Origin: a phage
Reading direction: 5' to 3' (one strand)
DNA: 64,000 nucleotides
Sequence record: PZ452584.1
A program made the translations under genes and the position numbers. How positions within the stretch are numbered: position 1 is the first letter of the stretch; each line of letters opens with the position of its first letter. The notes under the pieces are model-generated. The model did not search any database. It was not told the origin of the DNA and saw nothing but the letters and a program-made list of their open reading frames with translations. Positions 3,768-53,400 of this stretch are shown piece after piece.

Positions 3768-4377
3768 GGTGTCTTTTCCATCCTAATTTAGCTGCTTTTG
3801 AAACTAGTTCTTTAATTTTTCCTTTTGTCCATTCAGGACCAGGAGGTTCATGACATAACATTTGCTTAACTCCGTTATTATACCATTTTTTACCTTTATT
3901 ATGTGATGAAGCTTTAAATTTATTTGACCTTCCTTTTACATAACCTTCTGGAATATAAGGCAAAAAGGCAGATTTTCCTGTTAATGGATCATGTGAATGT
4001 ATATTTCCTTTACAATTATGAGAACCATATAATGGATGATTTTGTCCTTTATTATCTCTTCCAAATGAACCTTTTGGAGCAGCATATGACATATTAAAGA
4101 ATAATGGATTTTTAACTGCATCATGCAATCGTTGATAATATAACTCGCATTTAATAGCTTCTTCACGCGTATCAAATTCAGCTAAAATGCATGAATCAAA
4201 TAAGTGAGGATTATCTGAAAGCTCTTTATTATAAATTTTCTTATACTTTTTAGATAAAACTGAACCATGATATCCAGCTAAATGCCTATCTAAAGACGTA
4301 GATCCAATATAAAAAGGAGGAAGTTTATCTCCACTATATATATTGTTAAATAAGTTATATATTTTTTCATATATCAA
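3745..4377 (-). mobile_element. GIY-YIG-type (Seg-like) homing endonuclease gene; start region ambiguous
   Basis: N-terminus (L)IYEKIYNLFNNIYSGDKLPPFYIGSTS...R...E...N fits GIY-YIG order; track frame begins at TTG, the nearby ATG is in another frame across an A6 run. Confidence 0.45.
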
Positions 4378-4546
4378 GAACCGTCATTGAAATGCAAAAT
4401 AAAATTATTGAAATAAACCCATCTGGTGTGCTAAAGAACCCAATCCAACATGCTTTAGTGAATAGATAAAATGCAAGAAAAAGTATCACATATCCAAGAA
4501 ATATCATTATATCAAACTCCGTATAAAGCTAAAGGGCCGAAGCCCT

Positions 4547-10826: not shown

Positions 10827-12640
10827 TGGTGTTTAACCCTATGCATGATTTCTTTATTTTTACCGAGATTAAATCCGCGTTCGTTCGGGTTTCCAAGATA
10901 TCCGCATGTTCTTCTTATTGTATTCATCTTTTTAGGATCAGTTTCTCCACAAATAGAACAAACAAATCCGTTTTCAGTAGGAGTCATTTCATGGGTACTT
11001 CCACATGTAAAACATTTATCTACTGGCATATTAACACCAAAATAATCTAAATGTTGTGCAGCATAATCCCATACGGCCTCAAGGCCTTTTAGGTTATTTT
11101 TCATATCAGGAAGTTCAACATAAGAAATGTGACCACCTGTCGCAATGAAATGATATGGTGCTTCACGAGAAATTTTTTCAAACGGAGTAATATTTTCTTC
11201 TACTGAAACGTGGAAACTGTTAGTGTACCATCCTTTATCAGTAACATCCTTTACACTTCCATATTTTTCGGTATCGAGTTTACAGAAGCGATAACAAAGG
11301 TTTTCAGCAGGAGTAGAATACAAACTAAAAGCAAATCCGGTTCTTTCAGTCCACTGTTTAAGATGGGCATTCATTTTAGTTAAAATTTCTTGTCCAATAT
11401 CACGACCGGCAAGAATATTCAATTCGTGAATACCAATGTATCCTAGAGACACTGAACTTCTACCGTTTTTAAATAACTCAATTATGTCGTCATCAGGTTT
11501 AAGACGAACCCCGAATGCACCTTCTTGGTAAAGAATAGGAGCAACAGTAGCTTTAACTCCTTTTAAGGAACTAATTCTACACATCAAGGCTTCAAAACAT
11601 AAATCCATTCGTTCATTGAACAATTCGATAAATTTCTGTTCATTGAACTGTGTTCCAATATAAGAATCTAACGCAATACGAGGAAGATTCAGTGTTACAA
11701 CACCGAGATTATTACGTCCATCAAGAATTTCATTGCCAGTCGAATCTTTCCATACGCTCAAGAAACTACGACAACCCATTGGAGAAACAGGAATAGATGA
11801 GCCGGTGATAGCTTTATTGTTCTTAGCTGAAATAATATCAGGATACATTCTTTTGCTTGCGCACTCTAGAGCAAGCTGTTTAATATCATAGTTCGGATCG
11901 TCTTTATAAAGATTAACACCTTCTTCAACGAACATAACAAGCTTAGGGAAAATAGGAGTTATCCCATCACGACCGAGACCTTTAATACGATTTTTCAGAA
12001 TTGCTTTCTGAATCATTCGTTCAGTCCAGTCAGTTCCTGTACCAAATGTAATTGTTACAAAAGGTGTTTGTCCGTTTGAACTAAAGAGAGTATTTACTTC
12101 ATATTCATAAGCTTGGAATGCATCGTATACGTCTTTTTCTGTTTTAGATTGGGCATAATTCAGTGCATCGGCGATTTGCCATTTTTCTGCGTCCTCGATA
12201 TGTTTTGCATAGGTGCGTTTAACATAAGGAGAAAGTACTTTATCTACATTCGCAAAAGTCGTTCCGCCGTATTGGTGAGAAGCAACCTGTGCGGTAATTT
12301 GTGCCATAATTGCAGTAGCAACGCCAATTGATTTAGGAGTTTCAATCTGCGCATTACCAAGCTTAAATCCGTTCTCAAGCATTCCTTTTAAATCTACTAA
12401 ACAGCAATTAGTAAATGGAAGAGCAGGGGAATAATCAATATCATGAAAATGAATAATTCCGCTTTCATGCGCTTTCATAATAAAAGACGGGACCATATTT
12501 TTGGCAATGTGTTTAGACACAATACCAGCCATAAGGTCCCGTTGAGTTGGAAAAACACGAGAATCTTTGTTAGCATTCTCGTTTAAAAGGTCTTTATTAG
12601 TTTTATGAATCAATCCTTCAATTTCTTTTTCAATTGTCAT
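10823..12640 (-). CDS. nrdD: Anaerobic ribonucleoside-triphosphate reductase (glycyl-radical enzyme), uninterrupted
   Basis: 605-aa continuous ORF with C-terminal zinc ribbon and glycyl-radical region (...RRTCGYLGNP...). Confidence 0.95.
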   Translation of the reverse strand: MTIEKEIEGLIHKTNKDLLNENANKDSRVFPTQRDLMAGIVSKHIAKNMVPSFIMKAHESGIIHFHDIDYSPALPFTNCCLVDLKGMLENGFKLGNAQIETPKSIGVATAIMAQITAQVASHQYGGTTFANVDKVLSPYVKRTYAKHIEDAEKWQIADALNYAQSKTEKDVYDAFQAYEYEVNTLFSSNGQTPFVTITFGTGTDWTERMIQKAILKNRIKGLGRDGITPIFPKLVMFVEEGVNLYKDDPNYDIKQLALECASKRMYPDIISAKNNKAITGSSIPVSPMGCRSFLSVWKDSTGNEILDGRNNLGVVTLNLPRIALDSYIGTQFNEQKFIELFNERMDLCFEALMCRISSLKGVKATVAPILYQEGAFGVRLKPDDDIIELFKNGRSSVSLGYIGIHELNILAGRDIGQEILTKMNAHLKQWTERTGFAFSLYSTPAENLCYRFCKLDTEKYGSVKDVTDKGWYTNSFHVSVEENITPFEKISREAPYHFIATGGHISYVELPDMKNNLKGLEAVWDYAAQHLDYFGVNMPVDKCFTCGSTHEMTPTENGFVCSICGETDPKKMNTIRRTCGYLGNPNERGFNLGKNKEIMHRVKHQ

Positions 12641-20366: not shown

Positions 20367-21347
20367 TTATTTCAGAAGAGTAACCTCAGCGATTTCTTCC
20401 CAGCCGTTTTTGTCGGTCATAATAAAGTCAGCAAGATAAAGAGCAGTACGCAGTGAAACATTGCGTAAACGATTAACATTGACTTTCATCCATGATAATG
20501 CTTTATAAGTTTCTTCATCAGAAAGACCACGCTTTTGCATCATGTCGGTTGAAAGAATAACATCTTCAACCCTGACCATAATTTCTTCATTAGTGTGAAC
20601 ACCCAAATCCAAATAAACTGAGCGGGACACTAATGCTTGTAAATGTGGAGCAAGTTTAGTACCACGGTCTAATTCGCGGTCAATGTCAACGTTTGTGATA
20701 AAAACAATCGTTCCTTTAAATTCAAACTCACGCTCAATGCCTTTTTCTTCTAAGTAAGAAGATGCAGTGCTCCAGCAGACTTTACGGGTCTCTCCAGTGT
20801 CCAGAGCGGCTTTTAGAAGATTAAGAATATCCATATCAGAGAAAACATCCACATCATCAATCAAAAGGACAGAATTCTCTTCACGATTATTCCAAAGCTG
20901 CTCATAAAGACCGATACCGGAGATTTTACCGTTAATGCTTTTATATTCAATGTATCCATTATCATTTGCTTTATTTAAAGCTTTATCTAAAGAATACGTT
21001 TTACCAATACCCGCCGCACCAGAGATAATTAATGAACGAATGTTTCCGTTAATAATACCATTCGTCATCATTCCCATAACATTAAATCTTTTATTAATGC
21101 GGGTTTTCATATCTTCATATGATTCTTTAACTTCTTCAACTTTTACACCATCATATGAAATGTCTGATTTGTAAACCCAAACACCGCGACGTTTACCGTC
21201 AATTTCAACAAAAACTTTACCATCTCCTTGTGCATCTACCGGAGCATTATCTGGGAACCATTCACCTAAGAGCTCAAAAGTTCCAGAGATTTCTTTACCA
21301 AAGTAGATACCCTTATTGATAGTTACAGTTTTCATTTTATTCTCCAA
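20367..21347 (-). CDS. P-loop ATPase (AAA-like)
   Basis: Walker A IISGAAGIGKTYS and Walker B VLLIDDVDVF. Confidence 0.6.
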   Translation of the reverse strand: MENKMKTVTINKGIYFGKEISGTFELLGEWFPDNAPVDAQGDGKVFVEIDGKRRGVWVYKSDISYDGVKVEEVKESYEDMKTRINKRFNVMGMMTNGIINGNIRSLIISGAAGIGKTYSLDKALNKANDNGYIEYKSINGKISGIGLYEQLWNNREENSVLLIDDVDVFSDMDILNLLKAALDTGETRKVCWSTASSYLEEKGIEREFEFKGTIVFITNVDIDRELDRGTKLAPHLQALVSRSVYLDLGVHTNEEIMVRVEDVILSTDMMQKRGLSDEETYKALSWMKVNVNRLRNVSLRTALYLADFIMTDKNGWEEIAEVTLLK

Positions 21348-21364: not shown

Positions 21365-21452
21365 GTTGTATAGTACCATAAAGCTTTATGCTTGTAAACA
21401 GTTTTGTGAAAAAATTTTTGAAATAAAAAGGGGGACCTCTAGGGCCCCCTTT
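21365..21452 (-). promoter_or_regulatory. PeSL-like unit: terminator hairpin plus early promoter
   Basis: aaaagggggacctctagggccccc hairpin 21427-21452 preceded on plus strand by gtaaacagttttgtgaaaaaatttttgaaat and tatagtaccat. Confidence 0.55.
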
Positions 21453-21458
21453 ATGCTT

Positions 21459-21944
21459 TTATTCCATTTCTATTATATGCATGTTCTTTTTGCTATCAAA
21501 ATATATGTTTTTAACTGTTAACTCCGAATTAATTGGCAATAAAAACTCTCTTTCATAATCTACCATACAAAGGTTATCATAAAGCTTGTTAAGCTTATCA
21601 TCGTCAGTTTGGCCAGATTCTTCAATTGCGATTAAATTTTCTAAAATGTCAATCATAGCAGTCGAATAGTCAAAAACGTTTGCATTTTTTAACACTACTA
21701 AAACATTAGTCATATAGCGTTCTGCAGCAAACGTTTCAGCTATATGAGACTCACTGCTAAAGGAAGTTATTCTTTTAAATTTGATTCTCCTATTAACTTC
21801 AAACTTATAAGATAGTACTTCCTCTATTGTAAGTCCTCTAAAAAGCACGTCTTTAATCTCAAGTTTGTCTTTAATGTAATCATTAACACGCTTATGATTA
21901 AAATCATTAATTTTGTTGCCAAGGCATTTCATTAAAATATGCAT
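21459..21944 (-). CDS. Hypothetical protein in PeSL-flanked cassette; candidate ADP-ribosyltransferase-like fold (motif-level only)
   Basis: Track ORF 21459-21974 (TTG start) trimmed to first ATG; FRG ... ITSFSSES ... YEREFLLP motifs in R-S-ExE order. Confidence 0.45.
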   Translation of the reverse strand: MHILMKCLGNKINDFNHKRVNDYIKDKLEIKDVLFRGLTIEEVLSYKFEVNRRIKFKRITSFSSESHIAETFAAERYMTNVLVVLKNANVFDYSTAMIDILENLIAIEESGQTDDDKLNKLYDNLCMVDYEREFLLPINSELTVKNIYFDSKKNMHIIEME

Positions 21945-21989
21945 TGTGTTTCTCTTCAATTTTTTAAAGAACAATTAATTAACTACAAA

Positions 21990-22071
21990 TATATTATAAT
22001 ATGCTTTATGATAGAAGTAAACAACTTTGTGAAAAATTTTTGAAATAAAAAGGGAGCCCGAAGGCTCCCTA
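21990..22071 (-). promoter_or_regulatory. PeSL-like unit: terminator hairpin plus early promoter (-35 GTTTAC, -10 TATAAT)
   Basis: gtaaacaactttgtgaaaaatttttgaaataaaaagggagcccgaaggctccc; minus strand reads GTTTAC-18nt-TATAAT. Confidence 0.55.
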
Positions 22072-23085
22072 TCATTTATAATAACTTCGGTGGTTTTCAA
22101 GATACACCTTCTCAAGGAAGTCATCCCAGAAACCCATGTCTACTTTTTGCTGCATACCGTTCTTAGAAGCTTCAGTAGATGCTGCTTCTACTTGATCGAC
22201 CACATCTTCCAAAAACTCTTGAACTGTTTTAAATGGATGCTTACCCAACTTCACGTCGAGAATAAATGGAGCATCTTGGAGTGGATAAACCAAGTCACCA
22301 GTTTTGTAAATTTCCAATAGTTGGAGTCCACCACGACAAGCATGACTCAGAGCTTTCCAGTCAATACCTTCATTGGCTTCGGCCTTACGAGCACGTTCAC
22401 CGTATTCAGCATCAAGTTTATTCAAAGACTGCTTAAGCTCAATAAGAGAAAGCGTTGTCTGATATTTACGACCCAACACAGTGTAGAACGTTTGTGGGCC
22501 TGTTTTCTCATGATTATGGAACACCCATTCACAGAATTCGTTTTCTGGAAGACGATGCTTAATATCTTCAACTTTAGTACGACGCTGCTTAATGGAACCG
22601 TCTTCTTGGTAATCAACCCATTGCTCAGGGATTTGATTAACTACTTTCAATACATCGCGTAATGCAGCCAAACGAGAACCCTTGACACCGTATTTAGAAG
22701 CTTGCTTGCGAACATATCCTAAATAAGATTTCATGTTAGTCGTATAAAAACGAGAACGGTTGTCTTGAATAAACTTCCACACATCAGGCAAATCAGATTT
22801 AACCACTAATTCAGGTGGAGTGTGAAGCATATCCAATGCTACAGTTTCACCATCTGCTGCTAATTTAAAGAAATACTTAAGACTATACAATTCGTGGTCA
22901 ATATCATCTTTAGTGTTTTTAGATGATGTGTTGTTGGTGTTTTTACTCATGTGCTCTTTGACATTTCCGATAAGAATATCGCGAGCAGGAGGAACAAAAA
23001 TTTCTTTAAAATCTACATCAGATTCTGGGGTAGAAGTTCCATAAAGATGACTACCAAAATAGCTTTTCATTACTGTTTTCATCAT
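22072..23085 (-). CDS. Pol-beta-superfamily nucleotidyltransferase-like protein
   Basis: N-terminal YFGSHLYGTSTPESDVDFKEIF matches GS-x(9-13)-DxD nucleotidyltransferase signature; 337 aa. Confidence 0.5.
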   Translation of the reverse strand: MMKTVMKSYFGSHLYGTSTPESDVDFKEIFVPPARDILIGNVKEHMSKNTNNTSSKNTKDDIDHELYSLKYFFKLAADGETVALDMLHTPPELVVKSDLPDVWKFIQDNRSRFYTTNMKSYLGYVRKQASKYGVKGSRLAALRDVLKVVNQIPEQWVDYQEDGSIKQRRTKVEDIKHRLPENEFCEWVFHNHEKTGPQTFYTVLGRKYQTTLSLIELKQSLNKLDAEYGERARKAEANEGIDWKALSHACRGGLQLLEIYKTGDLVYPLQDAPFILDVKLGKHPFKTVQEFLEDVVDQVEAASTEASKNGMQQKVDMGFWDDFLEKVYLENHRSYYK

Positions 23086-23203
23086 TCAGCCTTATATTCA
23101 ATAACAGGACATACTTTAGCTTTACGGGCTTTTAAAAATTCGACGATAATAGATTTCTTGGGTTGAATAGGAGGTAAACCTTTATACGCCCTATCAATAT
23201 TTT

Positions 23204-23542
23204 CTACATGTAAAGCATAATCCTTTTCCATTTATAATCTTTATATTTTTCATGCAGTTGTGCAGGAATAACAAATGAACCGATAATAAGTAAAACAAGC
23301 AAAATGGCAAGTATAAATGCTGATGGAATAAGAGTCCATAAACTACCAAAAATAAGCCATTTCTGTATGATTTCTGCACAGATGATAGTTAGCCCTACGA
23401 GTATAGCACATCCGAAAAAAGAAACGAAAAATGTAGGAATAACAATAGACCAAAAATATGCACATAGTGTCTTAGGTCGTTGCCATTCATCGTTAAACAA
23501 TTTGAATAATTTATAGTGCCAAGAGTTTTCATTAATAATCAT
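23204..23542 (-). CDS. Hypothetical membrane protein
   Basis: 112 aa, several hydrophobic helices. Confidence 0.4.
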   Translation of the reverse strand: MIINENSWHYKLFKLFNDEWQRPKTLCAYFWSIVIPTFFVSFFGCAILVGLTIICAEIIQKWLIFGSLWTLIPSAFILAILLVLLIIGSFVIPAQLHEKYKDYKWKRIMLYM

Positions 23543-23544
23543 AA

Positions 23545-24066
23545 TTATCCTTTCATTGAAGGCGTAACGGTTGTTAAATATTTAATCATAGCTTCAGCTT
23601 CTGATTTTGATAATGAAATTTCTCCATTGTTTTGACGAATAGAAATAAAATCCGGATGACGGTCACCACCAGCTTTTAAAACACACATATAAGTATCAAC
23701 TTCGCCTTCAATATTTGAAATGATTGAAGCAGTTCCACATGAATGCGGTTTTTGATAAATCAACACAGCTTTTCTTCCGCCATTTGACTGCTCATAGGCT
23801 TTTAATACATCAAGCAAATCAGTTCTTTTATCAATAGCTAAAATGTTATTTTCATCTTCAATGTTAAATCCTTCGGATACTTCATAAAGCGTTACCCATA
23901 AATCACCAATGTCAATAACAGCATTTACTTTTCCACGGCTTTCAAGAGTATGACAAATTTTCTTGATTTCGTCATAACTCATTTTAATAATATCATCTCC
24001 TTGACTAAGAAAGATGTCATTTTTAAATTCAACACGAATTAAACCGCTTCCACTTGAAATAAACAT
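23545..24066 (-). CDS. Hypothetical protein (paralog-like with 24073-24627)
   Basis: C-terminus ...SEAEAMIKYLTTVTPSMKG resembles neighbour's ...DEAIALKTYLDSVIPTMISK. Confidence 0.45.
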   Translation of the reverse strand: MFISSGSGLIRVEFKNDIFLSQGDDIIKMSYDEIKKICHTLESRGKVNAVIDIGDLWVTLYEVSEGFNIEDENNILAIDKRTDLLDVLKAYEQSNGGRKAVLIYQKPHSCGTASIISNIEGEVDTYMCVLKAGGDRHPDFISIRQNNGEISLSKSEAEAMIKYLTTVTPSMKG

Positions 24067-24072
24067 ATTTCC

Positions 24073-24627
24073 TCACTTTGAAATCATAGTTGGAATAACA
24101 GAATCAAGATAAGTCTTTAGTGCAATAGCTTCGTCTTTGGTAAATGTGACAATATGTGCTCGAAAATCATCAATTTGACGAATAGTTAAGACATCTCCAT
24201 CTTCATAACATTTTGATACGTTTAAAACAGTTTCATCATTCTGATTGCAAGCGTTAGTAATAATAGCATTGCAATTTTTAAACCATTTTAAACTATGTTT
24301 TCTTTCATTAGAATAATAAAAATATTTAATCTTATCTATAAAACTGTCCCAATGGATAACTGATAAGCATATTGACTCGCTTTCAATATTAAATCCTGGG
24401 CATGAAGAATAAAAATGAATTTTATGCTCATCATTAATGCTTACAATTTTATCAGTATAAGGATATTCAATTTGGGTTAAATGAATAATTTCACTAGGTG
24501 TAAAATACAGCATATCGTCTTCTTGCGTCAAACGATACATATTATTTACTTTTTCTATAGCCAATTCGCCAAAAAGCGGACTAACTTCTAATACTAATCG
24601 TTTCATATTAATCCTTTTTAATGGCAT
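24073..24627 (-). CDS. Hypothetical protein (paralog-like with 23545-24066)
   Basis: See above. Confidence 0.45.
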   Translation of the reverse strand: MPLKRINMKRLVLEVSPLFGELAIEKVNNMYRLTQEDDMLYFTPSEIIHLTQIEYPYTDKIVSINDEHKIHFYSSCPGFNIESESICLSVIHWDSFIDKIKYFYYSNERKHSLKWFKNCNAIITNACNQNDETVLNVSKCYEDGDVLTIRQIDDFRAHIVTFTKDEAIALKTYLDSVIPTMISK

Positions 24628-50414: not shown

Positions 50415-53400
50415 CAGTAAAAGCACCTTCAGTCACTAGTCTCAGAATTTCCAAGTTATCCGCAAATCAGGTGCAAGTACGCTGGGATGACGTTGGTGCT
50501 AATTTCTACTATTTTGTAGAAATCGCTGAGACAAAAACAGACTCGGGGGAAAATCTCCCGAGTGATCAATATCGTTGGATTAATTTAGGGTATACAGCAA
50601 ATAATAGTTTCTTTTTTGATGATGCTGATCCACTGACATCATATGTTATTAGAGTAGCTACGGCGGCTCAAGATTTTGAGCAGTCTGACTGGATTTATAC
50701 CGAAGAGTTTGAAACTTTTGCTACGAATGCTTACACATTTCAAAATATGATTGAAATGCAATTAGCTAATAAATTCATTCAGGAAAAGTTCACTCTTAAT
50801 AATTCTGATTATGTTAATTTTAATAATGACACCATAATGGCTGCATTGATGAATGAATCATTTCAATTCAGCCCATCGTATGTTGATGTTTCATCAATAA
50901 GTAATTTTATTATTGGTGAAAATGAGTATCATGAAATACAAGGTTCTATTCAACAAGTATGTAAGGATATTAACCGAGTTTATTTGATGGAATCAGAAGG
51001 GATTCTATATCTTTTTGAGCGTTATCAACCTGTAGTTAAAGTATCCAATGATAAAGGACAAACTTGGAAAGCTGTAAAGCTCTTCAATGACCGCGTAGGA
51101 TATCCTTTATCTAAGACTGTATATTACCAATCTGCAAACACAACATACGTTCTAGGATACGACAAGATTTTCTATGGCCGTAAATCGACTGACGTTAGAT
51201 GGTCAGCTGATGATGTCAGATTTAGTTCACAGGATATAACATTCGCTAAACTTGGTGACCAATTGCATCTAGGATTTGATGTAGAAATTTTTGCCACTTA
51301 TGCGACTTTACCAGCGAATGTATACCGCATTGCAGAAGCTATTACTTGCACCGATGATTACATTTACGTTGTCGCCAGAGACAAAGTTAGATACATAAAA
51401 ACTAGTAATGCACCTATAGATTCTGATCCATTATCTCCAACATATTCGGAAAGACTTTTTGAACCTGATACAATGACTATAACTGGAAATCCTAAAGCAG
51501 TATGCTATAAAATGGATTCTATCGGTGATAAAGTTTTTGCTCTTATTATTGGTGAAGTTGAAACATTAAATGCTAATCCTAGAACATCAAAAATAATTGA
51601 TTCCGCTGATAAAGGAATATATGTTTTAAATCATGACGAAAAAACATGGAAAAGAGTTTTTGGTAATACCGAAGAAGAAAGAAGACGTATTCAACCCGGA
51701 TATGCGAATATGTCAACTGATGGTAAATTAGTTTCTCTGTCTTCGAGTAATTTTAAATTTTTAAGTGATAACGTTGTTAATGACCCTGAAACTGCTGTAA
51801 AATACCAGTTAATCGGTGCTGTTAAATATGAATTTCCTCGTGAATGGTTAGCTGATAAACATTATCATATGATGGCGTTTATAGCGGATGAAAAATCTGA
51901 TTGGGAAACTTTTACACCTCAGCCAATGAAATACTACGCAGAACCGTTCTTTAACTGGTCTAAAAAATCTAACACACGTTGTTGGATAAACAACTCTGAC
52001 AGAGCTGTAGTAGTTTATGCTGATTTAAAATACACTAAAGTTATAGAAAATATTCCGGAAACATCACCAGATAGATTAGTTCATGAATACTGGGATGATG
52101 GTGATTGCACTATAGTAATGCCAAATGTCAAATTCACTGGATTTAAAAAATACGCATCAGGAATGCTTTTTTATAAGTCTTCTGGTGAAATAATTTCTTA
52201 CTATGATTTTAACTATCGAGTGAGAGACACGGTTGAAATAATTTGGAAGCCAACTGGAATATTTTTAAAAGCATTTTTACAAAACCAAGAGCGTGAAACT
52301 CCTTGGTCCCCGGAAGAAGAGCATGGATTAGCTGATCCTGATTTAAGACCATTGATTGGCACAATGATGCCTGATTCTTATTTGCTACAGGATTCTAATT
52401 TTGAGGCATTCTGCGAAGCATATATTCAGTATCTTTCCGATGGATATGGAACTCAGTATAACAATTTACGAAATTTAATTCGTAACCAATATCCGCGAGA
52501 AGAGCACGCGTGGGAATATTTGTGGTCAGAGATATATAAAAGAAACATTTATTTAAATGCTGATAAACGTGATGCTGTTGCAAGATTTTTTGAATCACGT
52601 AGCTATGATTTTTATTCTACTAAAGGAATTGAAGCATCATACAAATTTCTTTTTAAAGTTCTTTATAATGAAGAAGTTGAAATTGAAATTGAATCTGGGG
52701 CTGGTACTGAATATGATATAATCGTTCAATCTGATTCTTTGACCGAAGACTTAGTAGGACAAACGATTTATACAGCTACAGGAAGATGTAATGTTACTTA
52801 TATAGAAAGAAGCTATTCTAATGGTAAATTGCAATGGACCGTAACTATTCATAATCTTTTGGGAAGATTAATTGCTGGTCAAGAAGTTAAAGCAGAAAGA
52901 CTCCCTAGTTTCGAAGGCGAAATTATTCGCGGGGTTAAAGGAAAGGATTTGCTTCAAAATAATATAGACTATATTAATAGAAGTAGATCATATTATGTAA
53001 TGAAAATTAAATCCAATTTACCTTCTTCCCGCTGGAAATCTGACGTTATTCGTTTTGTTCATCCAGTAGGATTTGGATTTATAGCAATTACCCTTTTAAC
53101 AATGTTTATTAATGTTGGTTTAACTCTTAAACATACAGAGACTATAATTAATAAATACAAAAACTATAAATGGGATTCTGGATTACCTACTGAATATGCT
53201 GATAGAGTAGCTAAATTAACTCCAACCGGTGAAATTGAGCATGATTTAGTAACAGGCGAAGCAATTTATGAACCTGGCCCAATGGCTGGTGTAAAATATC
53301 CTCTTCCTGATGACTATAATGCTGAAAATAATAATTCAATATTTCAAGGTCAATTGCCATCTGAACGACGTAAATTAATGAGTCCTCTATTTGATGCATC

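Follow-up and report, generated by a model that had tools for sequence, protein, structure and literature searches.

The DNA examined here is a stretch of 64,000 nucleotides from a phage (record PZ452584.1), referred to throughout as the window. It is a mosaic Tequatrovirus (T-even) segment, of which one 24-kb piece is 95-96.5% identical to T4-like phages over 91-94% of its length; nucleotide comparison with T4-like phages gave no fully identical database record for that piece. The nrdC hyperplastic region of the window contains a small open reading frame (ORF) for a protein of 161 residues, enclosed by two related intergenic units that each combine a G/C-rich hairpin with promoter-like sequence. 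All genes of this region lie on the minus strand and follow one another in the order nrdC.11, unit 1, the small ORF (21944-21459), unit 2 and nrdC.10 (Table 1). The region is very probably a single-gene promoter-early stem-loop (PeSL) cassette in a T2-like Tequatrovirus that was gained or lost through homologous recombination inside the core of about 38 nt common to both units, with a compact Mod-family ADP-ribosyltransferase of the R-S-ExE type, from a lineage distinct from ModA and ModB, as its cargo. An earlier description made from the letters alone, here called the sequence-only reading, had placed promoters before stem-loops in the two units; on the minus strand the order is terminator and then promoter.

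The ORF is intact and runs from an ATG at 21944 to a stop codon at 21459-21461, with a start identical to that of the 486-bp gene in the T2 RefSeq annotation. The peptide motifs picked out by the sequence-only reading are found in it as VLFRG (residues 33-37), ITSFSSES (59-66) and VDYEREFLLP (128-137). A longer version of 171 residues starts at a TTG at 21974. The ATG is the probable start because the TTG lies too close to the predicted transcription start, about 12 nt downstream of it, and has no Shine-Dalgarno sequence. The 171-residue ORF and a 181-residue call for a homologue (P0002) are judged to be over-extended, with added codons that overlap promoter sequence and lack conservation. Overlapping ORFs on the plus strand, such as one of 51 residues at 21366-21521, cross promoter and hairpin sequence and are not considered genes. 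The GC content of the small ORF is 29.2%, against 34.7% for the window.

The gene is already known bioinformatically and is no new discovery, given its public annotation as an ADP-ribosylase and its coverage by Pfam and PHROG. It is listed as 'RNA polymerase ADP-ribosylase' in T2 RefSeq (gp097), as 'ADP-ribosylase/ModB' in ACG-C40 (gp180) and as 'modA_1/modA_2' in the ECO07 phages. A published characterisation of the 161-residue protein or of its locus was not found in the literature searched, which was incomplete and does not prove absence.

Table 1. Features of the cassette and its flanks in the window
Feature	Position	Strand	Remarks
Mod-family R-S-ExE mono-ADP-ribosyltransferase gene (predicted)	21459..21944	-	161 residues; orthologue of T2 gp097; predicted catalytic R36, S61, E131, E133
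Shared repeat core, downstream copy (proposed recombination substrate)	21394..21432	-	39 nt; from repeat search, pattern count, blastn-short and T4 alignment
Shared repeat core, upstream copy	22017..22054	-	38 nt; 623 bp from the downstream core, which is the insert size relative to T4
Upstream-unit stem-loop	22051..22070	-	AGGGAGCC-TTCG-GGCTCCCT, then TTTTTATTT; intrinsic-terminator-like; 8 pairs, 6 of them GC
Cassette early promoter (predicted)	21993..22050	-	T-tract and A/T-rich UP 22023-22050; -35 GTTTAC 22017-22022; 17-nt spacer; -10 TATAAT 21993-21998
Downstream-unit stem-loop	21431..21449	-	GGGGGCC-CTAGA-GGTCCCC, then CTTTTTATTT; putative own terminator of the cassette; 7 pairs, 6 of them GC; stem unlike the upstream one
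nrdC.10 early promoter (predicted)	21370..21430	-	T-tract and UP 21400-21430; -35 GTTTAC 21394-21399; -10 TACTAT 21370-21375 with TG before it
nrdC.11, upstream flank	22072..23085	-	Nucleotidyltransferase, 337 residues; Pfam RlaP E 2.5e-11; PHROG 388 E 8.4e-137; annotated nrdC.11 in T2 and T4
nrdC.10, downstream flank	20367..21335	-	P-loop/AAA-like ATPase, 322 residues from the T2-annotated ATG; PHROG 1250 E 5.8e-167

A member of the Mod family with an R-S-ExE signature

The protein matches PHROG 832, 'RNA polymerase ADP-ribosylase', over residues 2-153 with an E value of 1.2e-23, and the Pfam family PF26816 (Mod_ADP_RT) is precomputed for its 95%-, 62%- and 54%-identical homologues (P0001-P0003). 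BLASTP aligns it with T2 ModA at 28% identity over 152 residues (E 3e-11), pairing LFRG with LWRG, TSFS with VSAS and YEREFLLP with DEQEVMIP; identity to ModA and ModB is 28-29%. Searched with a profile, 1.84 billion cluster representatives yield 30 proteins at E <=1e-3, of which 26 went into a family alignment together with three closer homologues and the window protein itself. All 30 of its sequences match PHROG 832. The mean column identity is 25% and the only invariant columns are R36, G37, S61, E131 and E133, which make up the R-S-ExE signature. R36 and G37 align with R73 and G74 of ModB, where mutation of R73 abolishes activity (PMC10468400). The Mod family is a recognised branch of the R-S-E clade (PMC9503650), and the ExE motif, in which a Glu stands two residues before the catalytic Glu, implies arginine specificity (PMC3102197). 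The gene is under purifying selection, with a ratio of non-synonymous to synonymous substitution rates (dN/dS) of 0.10-0.20 in most of the informative comparisons.

The AlphaFold2 model built from the family alignment has a predicted local distance difference test score of 94.1, a predicted template modelling score of 0.87 and an ADP-ribosyltransferase fold. The aromatic-Arg-Gly motif of beta1 (F35-R36-G37) stands at the end of predicted strand 29-37, the serine motif of beta2 (S-x-S or STS; here T60-S61-F62-S63) occupies predicted strand 60-63, and in the ExE motif of beta5 (E131-R132-E133) the second glutamate opens predicted strand 133-136. This is the placement on beta1, beta2 and beta5 described for R-S-E enzymes (PMC3102197). 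Foldseek comparison with BFVD finds ModA and ModB of diverse T4-like phages at TMq 0.77-0.88, and an Alt protein is matched as well (E 7.6e-4). The sequence-only reading, which had seen an ADP-ribosyltransferase-like motif pattern and named profile and structure searches as the check on it, is borne out by these fold and family matches, and the protein can be regarded as a predicted enzyme. Further fold neighbours include SidE/SdeA and C3, enzymes with non-protein or non-arginine targets.

Identity to the C3-like, VIP2, iota, Vis and Tre1 toxins is 7-20%, and the likeness lies in the fold and not in a significant sequence score. Unlike these toxins the phage protein is intracellular, has no secretion or translocation domain and has no immunity partner. 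PADLOC assigns no family at E <=0.01 to the ADP-ribosyltransferase or to either neighbour, and membership in a defence system was rejected on that result.

Relation to ModA, ModB and Alt

The small protein shares with ModA and ModB the profile family, the order and spacing of the R, S and ExE motifs and the predicted fold. Its gene has a predicted early-type promoter; ModA and ModB are also early genes. It differs in lying in the nrdC hyperplastic region and not in the srd-modA-modB locus, and in a crude, unbootstrapped neighbour-joining tree it clusters, together with its close relatives, with metagenomic proteins that have short N-termini, outside both the ModA and the ModB clade. T2 (MH751506), ACG-C40 and Salmonella phage Manna carry the small gene beside full-length ModA (200 residues) and ModB (207 residues) genes in the srd-modA-modB locus. 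It accompanies both rather than replacing either, and with its low identity, separate clade and different locus it is not a ModA or ModB orthologue. The suggestion in the sequence-only reading that the enzyme would be an extra one, beyond Alt, ModA and ModB, fits these genomes, since ModA and ModB are intact in all three and T2 also has Alt.

The catalytic arginine is at position 36 in the window protein, at 72/73 in ModA and ModB and at 47-50 in the sister clade. Since the sister clade is also short, the N-terminus has this length as a trait of the lineage and was not recently truncated. Judged from sequence, the protein would represent a third lineage within the Mod family, and its fold is not far removed from that of the T4 enzymes.

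T4 Alt belongs to the same R-S-E superfamily. It is a virion-packaged protein of about 680 residues (PHROG 802) and is injected, whereas the window protein would be expressed from its predicted early promoter. The window protein is four times smaller, does not match PHROG 802 and lacks the N-terminal part of about 400 residues for packaging and head targeting. T2 has, directly downstream of alt, a second full-length Alt-like gene of 685 residues, alt.-1 (PHROG 802 E 7e-255; MH751506.1 117743-119800; 5744-7801 in locus L014). The ADP-ribosyltransferase-family genes of T2 number five: two Alt paralogues, ModA, ModB and the small Mod-type gene.

The T2 RefSeq record NC_054931.1 has a modB (11151-11772; 2152-2773 in locus L002) that is frameshifted near codon 135, giving a 142-residue ORF with the R and S motifs and a 42-residue ORF; the frameshift separates off the ExE motif. 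As modB is an intact gene of 207 residues in MH751506, the frameshift either arose by mutation in that stock or is an error in the sequencing of that record. Compensation by the small enzyme for a defective T2 ModB was considered and rejected; the other T2 record, ACG-C40 and Manna keep an intact 207-residue ModB alongside it.

The predicted terminator and promoter units at the flanks

A repeat search of the window recovers 21394-21431 and 22017-22054 as a two-copy family. The two cores differ by one base in the length of an A-run and by 2 substitutions (G/A, T/C), and they share an identical stretch of 23 nt (blastn-short E 7.7e-8 within the window); the full 39-nt pattern has 0.00 expected chance occurrences. 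The near-identical flanking repeats of the sequence-only reading stand as far as the two-copy core is concerned, and its consensus contains a minor slip in that the 'R' covers one of the two substitutions. The units share the core yet differ in the stem and in the -10 region. The different hairpin stems had also been recognised from the letters, and each hairpin is followed by a T-run on the minus strand.

In the direction of transcription both units have the same layout: hairpin, T-tract, A/T-rich UP sequence, -35 (GTTTAC), 17-18 nt and -10 (TATAAT or TACTAT). Each is predicted to act as an intrinsic terminator first and then as a T4-type early promoter. The upstream hairpin folds as RNA at -18.4 kcal/mol with a z score of -4.46, and none of 200 shuffled sequences is as stable. 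Its stem is identical in the T4 intergenic region, and the nrdC.11 transcript should end there. The candidate promoter of the cassette agrees with 10 of 12 consensus positions, and the -35 and -10 elements of the window fit the T4-type PeSL consensus TTTACW-N17-TAYWAT given for the PST/T4 pair (PMC4122927); transcription would start near 21986. The downstream stem recurs in ACG-C40 after that phage's copy of the gene. The putative nrdC.10 promoter scores 9 of 12, has a TG before the -10 and is identical to the T4 nrdC.10 promoter and leader at 59 of 59 positions.

The -35/UP part belongs to a wider family of early promoters in the window, with 5 matches at <=3 mismatches against 0.02 expected. 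GTTTAC-N16-18-TAnnnT motifs occur 18 times on the minus strand of the window versus once on the plus strand. Among the six copies of the -35/UP core listed, a GC hairpin stands directly upstream only in the two units flanking the small gene. Minus-strand motif sites include 8789, 16991, 19959, 26035, 29861, 37474, 41523 and 41853, and several of the promoter motifs in the window share the extended UP/-35 core TTTCACAAA(A/G)NTGTTTAC of both repeats. A structured RNA in the repeats was considered and rejected, as the best Rfam score of 31.8 bits is far below the gathering score of 55.

The T4 empty site and the proposed exchange of the cassette

In T4, nrdC.11 and nrdC.10 are adjacent, with one intergenic unit of 114 bp between them. 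The left part of this unit, comprising the 3' end of nrdC.11 and the stem-loop, is identical to the upstream unit of the window at 43 of 45 positions and to the downstream unit at 23 of 50. The right part, comprising the spacer, the -10, the leader and the start of nrdC.10, matches the downstream unit at 59 of 59 positions and the upstream unit at 27 of 62. The core between the two parts is common to all three units. By this alignment the single T4 unit is a chimera of the two units of the window with the core shared, so that what the window has beyond T4 is a segment of 623 bp with the core at its borders. Recombination between the two units would excise just such a segment, and integration of a circle would insert it.

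PeSL cassettes were described for phi1/RB49 and extended to PST/T4, and the pattern of two flanking PeSLs in one phage versus one chimeric PeSL in another is a published one (PMC2839356, PMC4122927). By scans and folding, each unit of the window joins a stable stem-loop to a predicted early promoter of sigma-70 type that has AT-rich sequence upstream. Both are intergenic, and the accessory gene that they enclose, one gene within a hyperplastic region, is present in some close relatives and absent from others. The single chimeric unit at the T4 empty site repeats the pattern of RB49 ORFan192 and phi1. The window differs from the published cases in its cargo, which belongs to a confidently assigned enzyme family, whereas the cargoes in phi1/RB49 are mostly ORFans (PMC2839356). 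No mention of the nrdC locus was found in the two PeSL papers, and the word 'nrdC' occurs 0 times in PMC4122927. The shuffled cassette that the sequence-only reading had expected is in keeping with the chimeric T4 unit, with a second inserted block in ACG-C40 and with the published PeSL mechanism.

The flanks of the cassette are matched in 517 phage records, 42 of which cover >=80% of the 851-bp query. The protein is encoded at >=95% identity in 44 records, including T2, ACG-C40, Manna (99.4%) and Citrobacter phage Moon. The ORF is intact in 236 of the 247 matching records at >=80% coverage; in the BW-1 record the gene is in two pieces.

In metagenomic T4-like contigs (3983-4546 in locus L007, and locus L008) the interval from regA to DNA polymerase gene 43 contains a 62%-identical homologue. 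Another, 54% identical, follows an nrdC.11-like gene. In both cases promoter-like sequence precedes the homologue and a GC hairpin comes after it. One member of the sister clade lies in the canonical soc...dda 'mod' locus. Taken together, the sites, the low GC content and the presence/absence pattern indicate a probable mobile single-gene unit. The homologue between regA and gene 43 interrupts a conserved replication module and has its own promoter-like sequence and GC hairpin; its 181-residue call seems to reach 24 codons too far, into the promoter.

The gap between nrdC.11 and nrdC.10 in ACG-C40 holds a second inserted block, made up of a 49-residue ORF (hyp49) and a DUF4031 gene (1606-2015 in locus L005, record positions 51321-51730), and the same block is found in G29, VEc20 and others. 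The nrdC.11-nrdC.10 site is a multi-cassette hotspot. In ACG-C40 the unit between the ADP-ribosyltransferase gene and the extra block has the hairpin and promoter architecture seen in the window, and at the junction before nrdC.10 a promoter-like -35/-10 stands alone, with no hairpin in the alignment.

Proposed working and alternative explanations

Immediately after infection the host sigma-70 RNA polymerase would transcribe the small gene from its own early promoter. The upstream hairpin would insulate the gene from read-through out of nrdC.11, and the gene's own hairpin would end its transcript and insulate nrdC.10, which retains its native promoter. The enzyme would bind nicotinamide adenine dinucleotide (NAD+) through R36 on beta1, S61 on beta2 and E133 on beta5. 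The ADP-ribose would most likely be transferred to arginine side chains of host proteins, because E131, two residues before the catalytic Glu, is also a Glu. Host takeover would in this way gain a further modification besides the ones due to Alt, ModA and ModB.

Several observations weigh against the reading of the region as a PeSL cassette with an active Mod-type enzyme. Local Pfam-A and NCBIfam scans of the 161-residue protein return no match, a silence that is uninformative because the T2 ModA control is also unmatched; the T2 ModB control is equally silent, and PF26816 is apparently absent from the Pfam copy. Sequence searches of the PDB give insignificant scores, with Vis, a suggestive match, at E 0.013 for the profile and the unrelated methyltransferase METTL21A at E 0.38 for the single sequence. 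In the comparison of T2 with ACG-C40, about 7.5 non-synonymous versus about 0.5 synonymous changes give a nominal dN/dS of 3.4, against 0.1-0.2 for all other pairs; such counts are too small for interpretation. About 36 N-terminal residues of ModA and ModB are missing, and their absence might have an effect on stability or on how the substrate is recognised. The z score of the downstream hairpin, which folds at -15.3 kcal/mol, is weak at -1.4, an effect of the G/C bias of the 46-nt piece tested. Because other early promoters also have the -35/UP core, the similarity of the two units could in part reflect shared promoter function and not recombination.

On one rival account the gene is a decaying or catalytically dead Mod remnant, truncated at the N-terminus, and the repeats are no more than two common early promoters and terminators that play no part in mobility. 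The shortened N-terminus, the low GC content, the split gene of BW-1 and the recurrence of the promoter core elsewhere in the window would all suit such an account. It is nevertheless highly improbable, because the catalytic residues are invariant and selection is purifying: the five signature residues persist among relatives of about 25% identity at the low dN/dS noted above, and the ORF is intact in nearly all matching records. The compact, confident model has a complete ADP-ribosyltransferase core, the sister clade is short at the N-terminus as well, and the empty site of T4 is the exact chimera expected from recombination between units.

Two other alternatives accept the fold and concern what the enzyme does. 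Its main reaction might be the attachment of NAD-capped RNA ('RNAylation') as in T4 ModB, the modification of a nucleic acid or small molecule, or NAD+ glycohydrolysis. RNAylation of S1 and L2 is known for ModB, a fellow member of the family (PMC10468400), and the fold neighbours SidE/SdeA and C3 point in the same direction, as does the better hidden Markov model score to the ModB-like P0011 (1.1e-11) than to the ModA-like P0024 (1.3e-6). The R-S-ExE signature tied to arginine specificity is invariant, however, ModB itself also carries out plain ADP-ribosylation, the sequence bears no specific sign of NAD-RNA use and the neighbour-joining tree puts the protein outside the ModB clade; a main reaction other than arginine modification is accordingly judged improbable. 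A somewhat less doubtful proposal, though still an unlikely one, is that the enzyme is a counter-defence or host-range determinant that inactivates a strain-specific host immunity or toxin protein and not the transcription or translation machinery. The patchy distribution (about 44 of about 517 related phage records) speaks for it, as do the occurrence of the gene at different sites in different T4-like phages and an ADP-ribosyltransferase gene content that varies, with two Alt-like genes in T2. The mobile PeSL cassette, moreover, lies in a hyperplastic region, and such regions are tied to adaptive accessory genes in the PeSL papers (PMC2839356, PMC4122927). Against it, no PADLOC or anti-defence family is matched. 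The proposal concerns the target alone and is compatible with the preferred reading of a PeSL cassette carrying a Mod-type enzyme, not exclusive of it.

As an extension of that preferred reading, it may tentatively be suggested that the protein belongs to a third, horizontally mobile 'ModC-like' lineage that differs from ModA and ModB in its target or substrate, which might for example be NAD-capped RNA or a host defence protein. The gene would then travel as PeSL mini-circle cargo among genomes and sites (the nrdC region, regA-gene 43 and the mod locus) and serve as a strain-specific module for host takeover or counter-defence.

The three ADP-ribosyltransferases of T4 are the classic model of viral host takeover, and ModB has recently been shown to attach RNA to host proteins. 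The extra members of the T2 type, that is the small Mod-type enzyme and the second Alt-like gene, are natural variants for the study of target specificity, the former in a minimal scaffold. The locus is also a clean example of PeSL cassette exchange with a gene of assignable function. What interest remains lies in a third Mod lineage carried on a textbook PeSL cassette, and the work ahead is experimental and not a matter of discovery.

Neighbouring genes

The Pfam matches of nrdC.10 are to AAA/STAND families and are weak, falling under the gathering score. Upstream of nrdC.11, positions 23082-24627 of the window (minus strand) contain small ORFs of 49, 112, 173 and 184 residues, of which the 112-residue product is a predicted membrane protein. 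In T4 the place directly before nrdC.11 is taken by mobD, a homing endonuclease gene; this adds a further difference of presence and absence to the nrdC hyperplastic region.

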